Positions 22,162-24,028 of a stretch of 64,000 nt of DNA are shown here, one piece after another. The position numbers were made by a program, and so were the translations under genes. Position 1 is the first letter of the stretch. The number at the start of each line of letters is the position of its first letter. The notes below the pieces were generated by a model. The model worked only from the letters and a program-made list of their open reading frames with translations. It made no database searches and had not been told where the DNA came from. This DNA comes from Massalongia carnosa (taxonomy: Eukaryota): positions 1,240,001 through 1,304,000 of the forward strand of contig OZ287085.1 of NCBI GenBank assembly GCA_965645245.1. Direction: 5' to 3'.

Positions 22162-22361
22162 CTAATAGCACCTGGTGCTCACAGTCCCAACTGGCTCAGG
22201 ACCAATCTCGGCTTTGTCGCAAGCTTTACGGCATACTGTAAGCATTTCGAGAAACCGAAACTACTCCGATGTGGTGTCTTACTGTGTGGAACGGGAGCAG
22301 CTAAAGCAAGACCACATATAGCGATGGCGGTACCAACATAGAGGATATGGAAGAATTGCAT
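22162..22361 (-). CDS. Small secreted peptide, candidate RiPP precursor (46 aa): MQFFHILYVGTAIAICGLALAAPVPHTCDKAEIGPEPVGTVSTRCY
   Basis: ATG at 22361 and a hydrophobic signal peptide ending A-L-A. GTAAGA donor at 22282, CTTAC branch-like site, AAG acceptor at 22224 (an alternative CAG at 22236 keeps the same frame), TAG at 22164-22162. TATAAA lies ~120 nt upstream. Confidence 0.7.
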
Positions 22362-22480
22362 GTTGTGAAGGCGAGGCTTAATTTGACGATCACAGCTATG
22401 TGGTGTTGTAACGAAGGTATTAGAATATCTGGGCAAGGAAGGCTGTTGATATTCTCTCGGAATGCGGGAATCTCCAGATA

Positions 22481-22486
22481 TTTATA
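22481..22486 (-). promoter_or_regulatory. Putative TATA box of the peptide gene
   Basis: TATAAA on the minus strand 120 nt upstream of ATG 22361, inside the divergent intergenic region. Confidence 0.4.
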
Positions 22487-22947
22487 TCTCCAAATTATTC
22501 AATGACGATCAGTCAGGCTTTGCGCTGGTTCGATCAAGGGCTCCTTATTACGACAGTCGAAGTACATCGACATGGTTAGAATCTGTGTCGTATAGGTAAG
22601 TATGGATGATAAGCACTGTGACTCTACTAGACATCAAGCCATGGTTCATCGCTCGGATCTAGAGGACTGCAATAGCTGAAGCATATGCACGAACCGCACA
22701 ATCCGCGCGTTATGCGGCGCCACAGAATATCCGGTGAAGCTTTCAGTTTGATTGGCCTTGTTTTTGAGTCACGCAGCCGGGTTAGGTATCACGATATTGA
22801 AGTATTCCCCGATTCTTTAGTTCAATATCGCTGTGCCGTGATCCGCTCGAACGTTCGATAGTGTTCTTGCTCCCGGAATTCGGTTTTTCCCAGAGAGATC
22901 TATCGGGCAACTTCAAAAACACTGTTAGCCCGTCCTCGATGAATATA

Positions 22948-24028
22948 ATGGAGATTGAAAAACAACTTCTGTTAGAGCAGCATGGCTCTTCAGAGGTAGA
23001 AGTTGATCACTACGTTGAGGCCGAGCATCATGCTTCAAGGTGGCCTCTTCATGTGTTGCAGATACACACGAAAAGGTCTTCTTGGTTTCGAAACGGATGG
23101 CCCTTCACGATAATCATCATCTCACTCGTCTTCACGGCTGGACTCATCATTGGCATTGCAGTTGCTCCAGTAAATCATCCTCCTCATAGCATTTCCTTTT
23201 GTAAGTTCGGTCTATGTCCACTCCACCTGAAGCATAGATCATCGAGGTCTTACAGGAAAACAGCACCAGCACAAAGTGCCGTGCGATATGAACAGCAGAG
23301 CACACACCCTACGGACCATCACCTTTACAGTTCTTACTCTGGCCCGCCAACTGACCAACAGACCAAAGCATGGGAGAGACTTCTGGAGCGTTCGTGCGCA
23401 TGCTTCACCCTCCTGTTGCTCGATTGACTGACATCTAATCCAGCAGTGATGATCGGAGTATCTTACAAGGAAATGGCTCTCGCCGATGAGGACCCAGATT
23501 CTTCGATACAGCTGTCTTCTGGGGGTTATCTCGCGTCTCTGAGTGTCTACCATGACCTTCACTGTCTTGTAAGCGCCGACTGGCACTCGTGTACTGGTCA
23601 TTGCGCTCATCTTCATGGGTAGCGTCGTATCCGCTTTTTCATTTATCAAGATTACTATTATCCCAACATCACCACTCAAGAACGCATATACGAAAAGGGT
23701 CATATCGGTACACCATCCCCGTCGTTCAATTCTTTTTCTTTGTTTATTCCTCGAATCCTCCAACCTCGAAAAGCTAACGACTCGATCGCCTTGCCTAGAC
23801 CACTGTCTCGAATCTCTCCGCCTCTCCATTATGTGCAGCGGCGAAATCGGCCTTTATACCTTCACCTGGAAACCCAATGTTACTAAAGCAACTACAAAGT
23901 CCAATTTTGCGAGGCAGTGTGTCAACTGGAACGCTCTTGAGGGCTGGACGCGAGGGCGATCGGTTGGCATCGATCCACTTTTGAAACCACGACCTGATTC
24001 GTTGAAGGCGCGTCAGGAAGACGATTAG
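22948..24028 (+). CDS. UstYa-like / DUF3328 oxidase; exons 22948-23200, 23264-23389, 23444-23568, 23623-23707, 23799-24028
   Basis: N-terminal TM helix, then SPAQSAVRYE, YSGPP...AWERLL, GGYLASLSVYHDLHCL and HIDHCLESLRLSIMC (two HXXHC motifs), and RQCVNWNALEGW. All four introns are GT-AG and restore the frame. Alternative start at 22939. Confidence 0.92.

Follow-up and report, generated by a model that had tools for sequence, protein, structure and literature searches.

A conserved single-core peptide gene divergent from a UstYa/DUF3328 gene in Massalongia carnosa: a candidate new fungal RiPP system

A 64,000-nucleotide stretch of DNA from Massalongia carnosa (GenBank assembly GCA_965645245.1, contig OZ287085.1, positions 1,240,001 to 1,304,000 of the forward strand; hereafter the window, whose own numbering is used throughout) contains a tiny, unannotated, spliced and conserved gene for a signal-peptide protein, arranged head to head with a gene for a UstYa/DUF3328 protein (22162–24028). 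The peptide gene lies in a position that bona fide multi-core precursor genes occupy beside related UstYa genes and has the same build as these genes, but it carries one non-repeated core. Our analysis indicates that the gene is very probably real and under selection. We lean towards the interpretation that its product is a single-core, Kex2-independent precursor of a peptide made on ribosomes and modified after translation (RiPP), which would be modified in the secretory lumen by the neighbouring UstYa protein and would thus be the substrate of this enzyme.

Results

The UstYa/DUF3328 gene (22939–24028, plus strand) was rebuilt from five exons (22939–23200, 23264–23389, 23444–23568, 23623–23707 and 23799–24028), which are separated by introns of 63, 54, 54 and 91 nt, all four with GT..AG ends, and which together encode 275 amino acids (aa). 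The original prediction had described an intact five-exon DUF3328 gene with both HXXHC motifs, and the rebuilt gene agrees with this description. Exon 5 matches PF11807 (UstYa) with an E-value of 3.8e-13 and 50.2 bits against a cut-off of 25, and exon 3 matches the same domain with an E-value of 3.7e-4. The first HxxHC motif is at the end of exon 3 and the second spans the junction of exons 4 and 5; the columns of both motifs are invariant in nine aligned UstYa relatives. A hydrophobic stretch, a putative helix, is visible at about residues 54–77 of the product. Exon 5, used alone as the query of a HMMER search, gave 367 relatives at E ≤ 1e-3 among 1.84 billion representative proteins. This search replaced a word-based search of longer proteins with the same exon, which returned nothing at that threshold. 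The four downstream exons are 54, 68, 50 and 55% identical to the relative P0008, and the exons tile colinearly on full-length relatives, which confirms the splice junctions. The proteins P0002, P0012, P0020 and P0023 (1151–2696 aa) each contain 7–14 separate stretches that match residues 8–38 of exon 5.

The peptide gene is on the minus strand. Exon 1 (22283–22361) starts with the ATG at 22361, has 79 nt, ends in phase 1 and encodes the putative signal peptide. It is followed by a 59-nt intron (22224–22282; GTAAGA...CTTAC...AG) and by exon 2 with the stop codon (22162–22223). Exon 2 holds what is putatively the single core, Cys28-x16-Cys45-Tyr46-stop, and the 46-aa product ends in the eight residues GTVSTRCY. 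Cleavage of the signal peptide is likely after A21, between ALA and AP, and the next residues are A-P-V-P-H. The hydrophobic core of the product and the small residues at −3 and −1 satisfy a crude hydrophobicity heuristic. From the GTAAGA donor after 79 nt, the frame of exon 2 can be reached by an intron of 47 nt, giving 50 aa, or of 59 nt, giving 46 aa. The 47-nt model was dropped because its AG is only 2 nt past the branch-like CTTAC. The 59-nt intron is preferred because CTTAC lies 13 nt ahead of its AG, because a rule-based splicer selects it and because the homologues described below agree with it. Read without splicing, the open reading frame (ORF) has 60 aa and a C-terminus unrelated to that of the spliced product. 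This agrees with the earlier suspicion that the ORF track mistranslated a two-exon gene for a 46-aa signal-peptide protein. No tandem repeat was found in 22162–22361 and the 46-aa product has no KR site, and the same is true of the homologous genes at loci L044 and L074. The lack of repeats and of KR and the R-C-Y-stop end, which had been noted at the outset, were seen again in the rebuilt mature part, whose single tyrosine is the C-terminal residue.

The start codons of the two genes are separated by a divergent intergenic region of 577 bp (22362–22938), which is presumably a shared promoter. The head-to-head arrangement of the original prediction thus holds, and its spacing of about 590 bp is corrected to 577 bp from start to start. 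The spacer at L044 has 493 bp and that at L074 has 456 bp.

Taken alone, the signal-peptide-like ORF is not beyond chance, since the window has 222 ATG ORFs of 45 aa or more, of which 9 pass the crude hydrophobicity test, most of them antisense to transposons. It is conservation at other loci that lifts the gene above chance. A protein-database search with the unspliced 60-aa ORF found no relative, a search with the L044 peptide ORF returned only that ORF itself, and the ESM Atlas gave no usable match for peptide relatives. A low-depth run labelled as another organism was identical to the window in the covered parts of 21000–25200 except for a G>T change at 22556, in the shared spacer, and therefore has no comparative power. 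The same fungus or a very close relative was probably present in the sample of that run. Because the peptide had no database relative, no run was recorded as RNA and the other run was identical bar one base, the decision rested on synteny.

Comparison loci were collected by scanning metagenome contigs with the nine aligned UstYa relatives. This gave 80 fungal loci with flanks of up to 5 kb (613 kb in total), which fall into 44 independent groups at 95% DNA identity. A tblastn search of these 613 kb with the spliced peptide found a full-length match at L044, on the opposite strand and just upstream of the UstYa gene. With the 46-aa model the match scored 37.0 bits (E 1.7e-6), a score reached by none of 400 shuffled peptides (maximum 28.5 bits); the 50-aa model gave an E-value of 5e-5. 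A weaker full-length alignment was found in the same head-to-head position at L070 and L074, which are counted once because their DNA is identical; here the peptide ends in ST-G-C-Y-Q-stop. The genes of the window, L044 and L074 have in common a putative signal peptide, an exon 1 of 79–82 nt ending in phase 1, and a short intron whose branch motif is CTAAC or CTTAC. In all three, exon 2 has exactly 16 residues between its two cysteines, and the second cysteine is followed by an aromatic residue and the stop codon, with one extra Gln in L074. The intron has the same place and phase in L044 (48 nt), L074 (51 nt) and L002 (49 nt, GC-AG). The check by tblastn and synteny that the original prediction had proposed was thus positive: a secreted C-x16-CY (or CYQ) gene recurs head to head with UstYa at L044 and at L070/L074.

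The final eight residues are the same in the window and L044, yet seven of the eight codons differ, all of them synonymously. Such a pattern is the mark of purifying selection on the protein. A hidden Markov model (HMM) of exon 2 of L044 and L074, run against 31,841 six-frame ORFs, placed exon 2 of the window first among the ORFs that were not used for training (E 6e-4). A tree built from 50 UstYa sequences unites those of the window, L044 and L070 in one clade, with a support of 90 in the Shimodaira–Hasegawa-like approximate likelihood ratio test (SH-aLRT). Path lengths come to about 1 substitution per site, so the pairing of the two genes has survived a long divergence. We propose a single-core C-x16-C-Y family, which comprises a signal-peptide exon, a phase-1 intron and a Cys-x16-Cys-Tyr(-Gln)-stop end in a gene divergent from UstYa; these features were found in the window, L044 and L070/L074. 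When an HMM of five exon-2 sequences was run against the 31,841 ORFs, no additional member scored above noise. Patterns of the type C-x(13-18)-C-aromatic-stop at L050, L057-59 and L069/L073 (downstream, same strand) were regarded as chance, since no signal-peptide exon was found for them.

Divergent signal-peptide genes are a recurrent feature of these UstYa loci. Signal-peptide-like ORFs were sought on the divergent strand 300–1400 nt upstream of each UstYa gene, and the counts that follow depend on hand- or rule-made gene models and on the signal-peptide heuristic. In the UstYa group of the window (29 rows), such an ORF was present at 13 of 14 testable loci, and the fourteenth, L070, has a homologue that falls below the heuristic threshold. 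Control windows of three kinds gave 5/14, 4/15 and 3/15, and the pooled 12/44 differs from 13/14 with a Fisher p of 1.7e-5. In the sister group, inspection of up to 2.5 kb showed such a gene at 10 of the 17 loci that could be tested. Overall, a divergent signal-peptide gene lies upstream of UstYa at 24 of the 31 testable independent loci. Loci with too little upstream sequence were omitted from these counts, among them L001, L004, L061, L063 and L060 in the group of the window, L007, L039, L049 and L051 in the sister group, and L031, L043, L023 and L071, which are too short for the tree.

By inspection, nine of the 24 genes in this slot are multi-core repeat genes, several with KR, and 15 are non-repetitive. 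L035 has ADESYLPM five times (divergent gene at about 3450–3851, minus strand); L037, L064 and L018 have repeats of the type IVYPDEKLYAEEY followed by KR; L078 has an AIAYPDSY-KR core; L014, L016 and L034 have two cores each; and L025, which belongs to the UstYa group of the window, has SKWL three times (about 2530–2857, minus strand). L052 and L069, which are among the 15, have a single core after a KR. Repeat and non-repeat genes share the same layout wherever they could be spliced: a signal-peptide exon of 61–82 nt, a phase-1 intron and then the core exon, with the exon 1 length and phase-1 end found at 23 of 23 other spliceable loci. This includes the sister group, in which repeated cores, several with KR, stand behind the same kind of signal-peptide exon and phase-1 intron. 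The second exons of L044, L002, L030 and L069 open with a similar A-E-N-(S) stretch. Because divergent signal-peptide genes recur beside UstYa and some of them are of the repeat type, the gene of the window is placed in a dikaritin-type precursor slot. The proposal of a different precursor class, overlooked by repeat-based mining, gains support from this non-repetitive gene without KR in a recurrent precursor slot, conserved at L044 and L070/L074.

Two observations concern other genes of the slot. The repeat-core genes of L025, L035, L037, L064, L018 and L078 are candidate new dikaritin-type precursors, and their cores are apparently undescribed. L003 (about 3750–4001, minus strand) and L022 (about 3600–3831, minus strand) have related cysteine-free second exons of the form E-E-aromatic-x-W-D ... 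R-P-A-A-x-G-V ... A-F-stop, and may represent another single-core family beside UstYa.

The gene pair is part of an island at about 19.1–33.2 kb with the order FAD (flavin adenine dinucleotide) monooxygenase, peptide gene, UstYa, PF20684, Acyl_transf_3, gag-like ORF and AflR-like regulator. The FAD_binding_3 monooxygenase gene (19124–20507, minus strand) consists of three ORF pieces (Pfam E 6e-16), and its relatives adjoin UstYa in L056 (41–52% identity) and L045. Downstream of UstYa, a multi-exon gene (25203–26713, plus strand; Pfam E 4.8e-16) encodes an integral membrane protein with the Fung_rhodopsin domain PF20684. L044 has an orthologue-like PF20684 gene, with 62% identity in the middle exon. 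Besides the window, PF20684 genes are found within about 5 kb of UstYa in 13 of the 44 independent locus groups (L002, the L006 group, L030, L032, L044, L045, the L046 group, the L055 group, L056, L065, the L066 group, L071 and L077). PF20684 and UstYa may be partners in export, self-protection or sensing. The PF20684 gene of the window is followed by a membrane acyltransferase ORF (Acyl_transf_3, PF01757; 27116–28729 from stop to stop, plus strand; Pfam E 1.9e-19), to which L044 has a weakly matching sequence at its edge (32% over 136 aa, E 2.7e-8).

The last gene of the island encodes an AflR-like Zn2Cys6 transcription factor (31213–33178, minus strand; PF08493 E 1.3e-17, PF00172 E 1.7e-7). 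It is a possible cluster regulator, and the gag-like ORF lies between it and the other island genes. This ORF (29292–30623, minus strand, 444 codons) has no Pfam match. It was considered as a repeat precursor and ruled out, as it encodes a gag-like protein with a CX2CX4HX4C zinc knuckle. AflR-type sites were rejected as a signal: the shared spacer has one TCGN5CGR site, at 22457–22467, which is uninformative, and the window-wide excess of such sites is due to a minisatellite at 12307–12924. O-methyltransferase genes lie downstream of UstYa in L044 and L074, and L044 also has a tyrosinase; these tyrosinase and O-methyltransferase genes of the closest relatives are at 7958–8329 (minus) and 10337–10795 (plus) in L044 and at 7394–8094 (minus) in L074. 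A Pfam scan, which covered 128 ORFs of 90 aa or more in the window, found no domains of non-ribosomal peptide synthetases (NRPS) or polyketide synthases (PKS) and no kexin gene.

Discussion

DUF3328 proteins are described as membrane-anchored, luminal, O2-dependent enzymes with binuclear copper, in which HxxHC binds the metal, and they localise to Golgi, endosome and vacuole membranes (PMC12435403). A substrate with a signal peptide therefore fits enzymes of this kind. We infer the enzymatic steps and the nature of the product as follows. The signal peptide would direct the 46-aa product into the endoplasmic reticulum, where signal peptidase would cut after A21, and the two conserved cysteines, 16 residues apart, would probably close an 18-residue disulfide loop. 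A single N-terminal helix would hold UstYa in the membrane, and its binuclear copper domain with the two HxxHC motifs would face the Golgi or endosomal lumen, an arrangement described for the family member CctR. There UstYa might oxidatively modify the conserved C-terminal stretch T-V/L-S-T-x-C-Y. The modification site is probably the conserved Cys/Tyr end, and the likeliest chemistry would be a cross-link or hydroxylation at the sole tyrosine, the last residue. Because the core is itself the C-terminus, no Kex2 cut would be needed. The A-P-V-P stretch after the signal peptide could be trimmed by a dipeptidyl aminopeptidase. Tailoring or export of the product may involve the nearby PF20684 protein, acyltransferase and FAD monooxygenase. 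The conserved C-terminal residues may instead be a recognition element and not the site of modification.

Dikaritin gene sets include UstA/UstYa/UstYb for ustiloxin, PhomA/PhomY for phomopsin, AprA/AprY for asperipin-2a and VicA/VicYb for victorin. Like these clusters, the window has a two-HxxHC UstYa/DUF3328 gene clustered with a small gene for a putative signal-peptide protein, this gene has the slot and exon layout of the repeat-type precursors at the comparison loci, and related loci carry tyrosinase and methyltransferase genes. The tyrosinase and O-methyltransferase genes of the L044 cluster and the O-methyltransferase gene of the L074 cluster support the view that the peptide is a UstYa substrate. 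Unlike the dikaritin precursors, the putative precursor of the window contains a single core without tandem repeats or KR (Kex2) sites, and conservation is found in its C-terminal part, which two cysteines bracket and which ends in Tyr. The dikaritin type, as defined in print, requires repeats separated by kexin sites (PMC9632046; PMC7329392). The system of the window would work like a dikaritin-type cluster but departs from it in one defining feature, as it has no kexin-separated tandem repeats.

Three further systems are relevant. The precursor gigA is a multi-repeat protein cut by kexin, and one of its partners is a DUF3328 protein. In the epichloecyclin cluster, which consists of gigA, gigB, gigC and kexB, a secreted precursor is clustered with co-regulated genes (PMC10540207). 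The window likewise has a putative secreted precursor clustered with other genes, but this precursor is free of repeats, and the scanned ORFs include no kexin gene. In lichen fungi, orphan UstY clusters (Clan R1 and R2) contain HxxHC homologues, sometimes with a tyrosinase and an O-methyltransferase; they reportedly have no repeat precursor, and it is suggested that the precursor may sit elsewhere or consist of a single core peptide (PMC12048977). That paper names no precursor, whereas the window gives a concrete conserved two-exon candidate. CctR, ApnU and AprY are biochemically characterised DUF3328 enzymes, and in CctR, which hydroxylates a non-ribosomal cyclic peptide, the HxxHC motifs and a single N-terminal helix go with a binuclear copper centre in the luminal domain (PMC12435403). 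The protein of the window resembles these enzymes in its HxxHC(x)nHxxHC arrangement, and its N-terminal hydrophobic stretch may correspond to their membrane helix. CctR differs in that its substrate is non-ribosomal, whereas a ribosomal peptide is the probable substrate here. Acalitide (PMC10840396) was considered as a disulfide RiPP analogue and set aside, as it is protease-dependent and not UstYa-dependent. Full-text searches of openly accessible papers turned up no description of a non-repetitive precursor paired with UstYa, and subscription-only papers may already have one.

Several points weigh against the interpretation of the peptide as the substrate of UstYa. Adjacency is no proof of a substrate relation, because UstYa enzymes act also in non-ribosomal and polyketide pathways (PMC12048977). 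The recognisable core sequence is common to only three independent loci, the window included. L002, with C-x15-CF, fits by position only, since its membership by sequence is not significant (E 0.7–2.2). L030 was withdrawn as a C-x15-CF member, because that end is probably intron read-through: a GTAAGC donor and a third exon like that of L032/L065 make it a three-exon gene. All comparison loci are metagenome contigs fetched with one UstYa motif. The splice models were made by hand or by rule, and signal peptides were judged by the heuristic. The contigs of the four sequencing runs listed for the locus look like DNA and none is recorded as RNA. A tyrosinase and an O-methyltransferase were not found by the Pfam scan in the island of the window. 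Copia, LINE (long interspersed nuclear element) and Tc5/pogo elements flank the island at 15.1–17.3 kb and 34.0–35.5 kb, with the gag-like ORF inside. The pathway may therefore be incomplete in the window, because the tyrosinase and methyltransferase of L044 are lacking and transposons lie around and inside the island.

The small gene could encode an ordinary secreted disulfide peptide, such as a signal, an antimicrobial or an effector-like peptide, which shares a promoter with UstYa and is not its substrate. Two cysteines could form a disulfide without a dedicated enzyme, and the work of UstYa enzymes on non-ribosomal peptides and polyketides (PMC12048977; PMC12435403) would leave the neighbouring enzyme with another role. 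Against this, related loci have repeat precursors in the same slot, several with KR, behind the same signal-peptide exon and phase-1 intron, and the pairing has been kept over about 1 substitution per site of UstYa divergence. The lack of NRPS and PKS domains among the scanned ORFs of the window also argues against it and fits a ribosomal substrate. We therefore regard an ordinary secreted peptide as a serious, if unlikely, explanation. A quite improbable explanation is that the gene pair is a relic, in which the genes look intact and the pathway is silent or incomplete after break-up by transposons and loss of tailoring genes. The mobile elements flanking the island, the gag-like ORF at 29.3–30.6 kb and the missing counterparts of the L044 tyrosinase and methyltransferase genes are what such decay might leave. 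However, both genes have unbroken reading frames and intact splice signals throughout, the locus is identical bar one intergenic base in the run labelled as another organism, and clusters of the asperipin-2a type function without a tyrosinase and with just one UstY homologue (PMC12048977). That the small ORF arose by chance in the promoter region of UstYa and was made gene-like by the chosen splice is scarcely credible: about 4% of the window ORFs tested (9/222) look signal-peptide-like and database and Atlas searches gave no usable homologue, but the significant matches in the corresponding position of other loci, the conserved place and phase of the intron and the purely synonymous changes in the last eight codons already contradict it.

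The interpretation that the peptide is a UstYa substrate can be carried further, tentatively. Many orphan UstYa/DUF3328 genes might have an unannotated divergent single-core precursor, the C-x16-CY family might give a secreted peptide of about 20–25 residues, and the copper enzyme might cross-link its invariant C-terminal Cys-Tyr, for example as a Cys-Tyr thioether or as a Tyr ether onto T-V-S-T. As a whole, this extended proposal is doubtful. We know of no description of such Cys-Tyr cross-link chemistry or of a single-core precursor logic for fungal RiPPs.

UstYa/DUF3328 genes are very numerous in fungi. To our knowledge, the known peptide products of UstYa enzymes all come from kexin-cut repeat precursors, and mining pipelines search for exactly those. 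If the peptide is indeed modified by its neighbour, repeat-based genome mining would miss non-repetitive precursors of this kind. If short two-exon single-core precursors adjoin many UstYa genes, a large share of orphan clusters would become readable, including the precursor-less clusters of lichen fungi, and the sequence of the product would be predictable from the genome. The pair in the window would also be a small, defined enzyme–substrate pair for studying the action of a copper enzyme on a peptide. The dikaritins ustiloxin, phomopsin and victorin are mycotoxins, and such products therefore matter for food safety and plant pathology.

Other features of the window

The transposon load of the window is dense. 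Transposon stretches are at 1–4402 (plus), 15104–17315 (plus), 34010–35530 (minus), 40215–44868 (plus), 46843–52053 (minus) and 56829–61085 (minus). They include a copia-like element with an uninterrupted ORF of 1737 codons as well as other copia-like copies, a 507-codon ORF for a Tc5/pogo DDE transposase, and a LINE-like pair of endonuclease and reverse transcriptase. The composition profile of the window contains no strong AT-rich blocks of the kind left by repeat-induced point mutation (RIP). In the minisatellite at 12307–12924, TCGACCATCGA occurs 13 times, about 51 bp apart. The minisatellite is probably also the cause of the odd weak Pfam matches (TraW_N, MPI cupin and Bbp19) on ORFs at 12231–12776.

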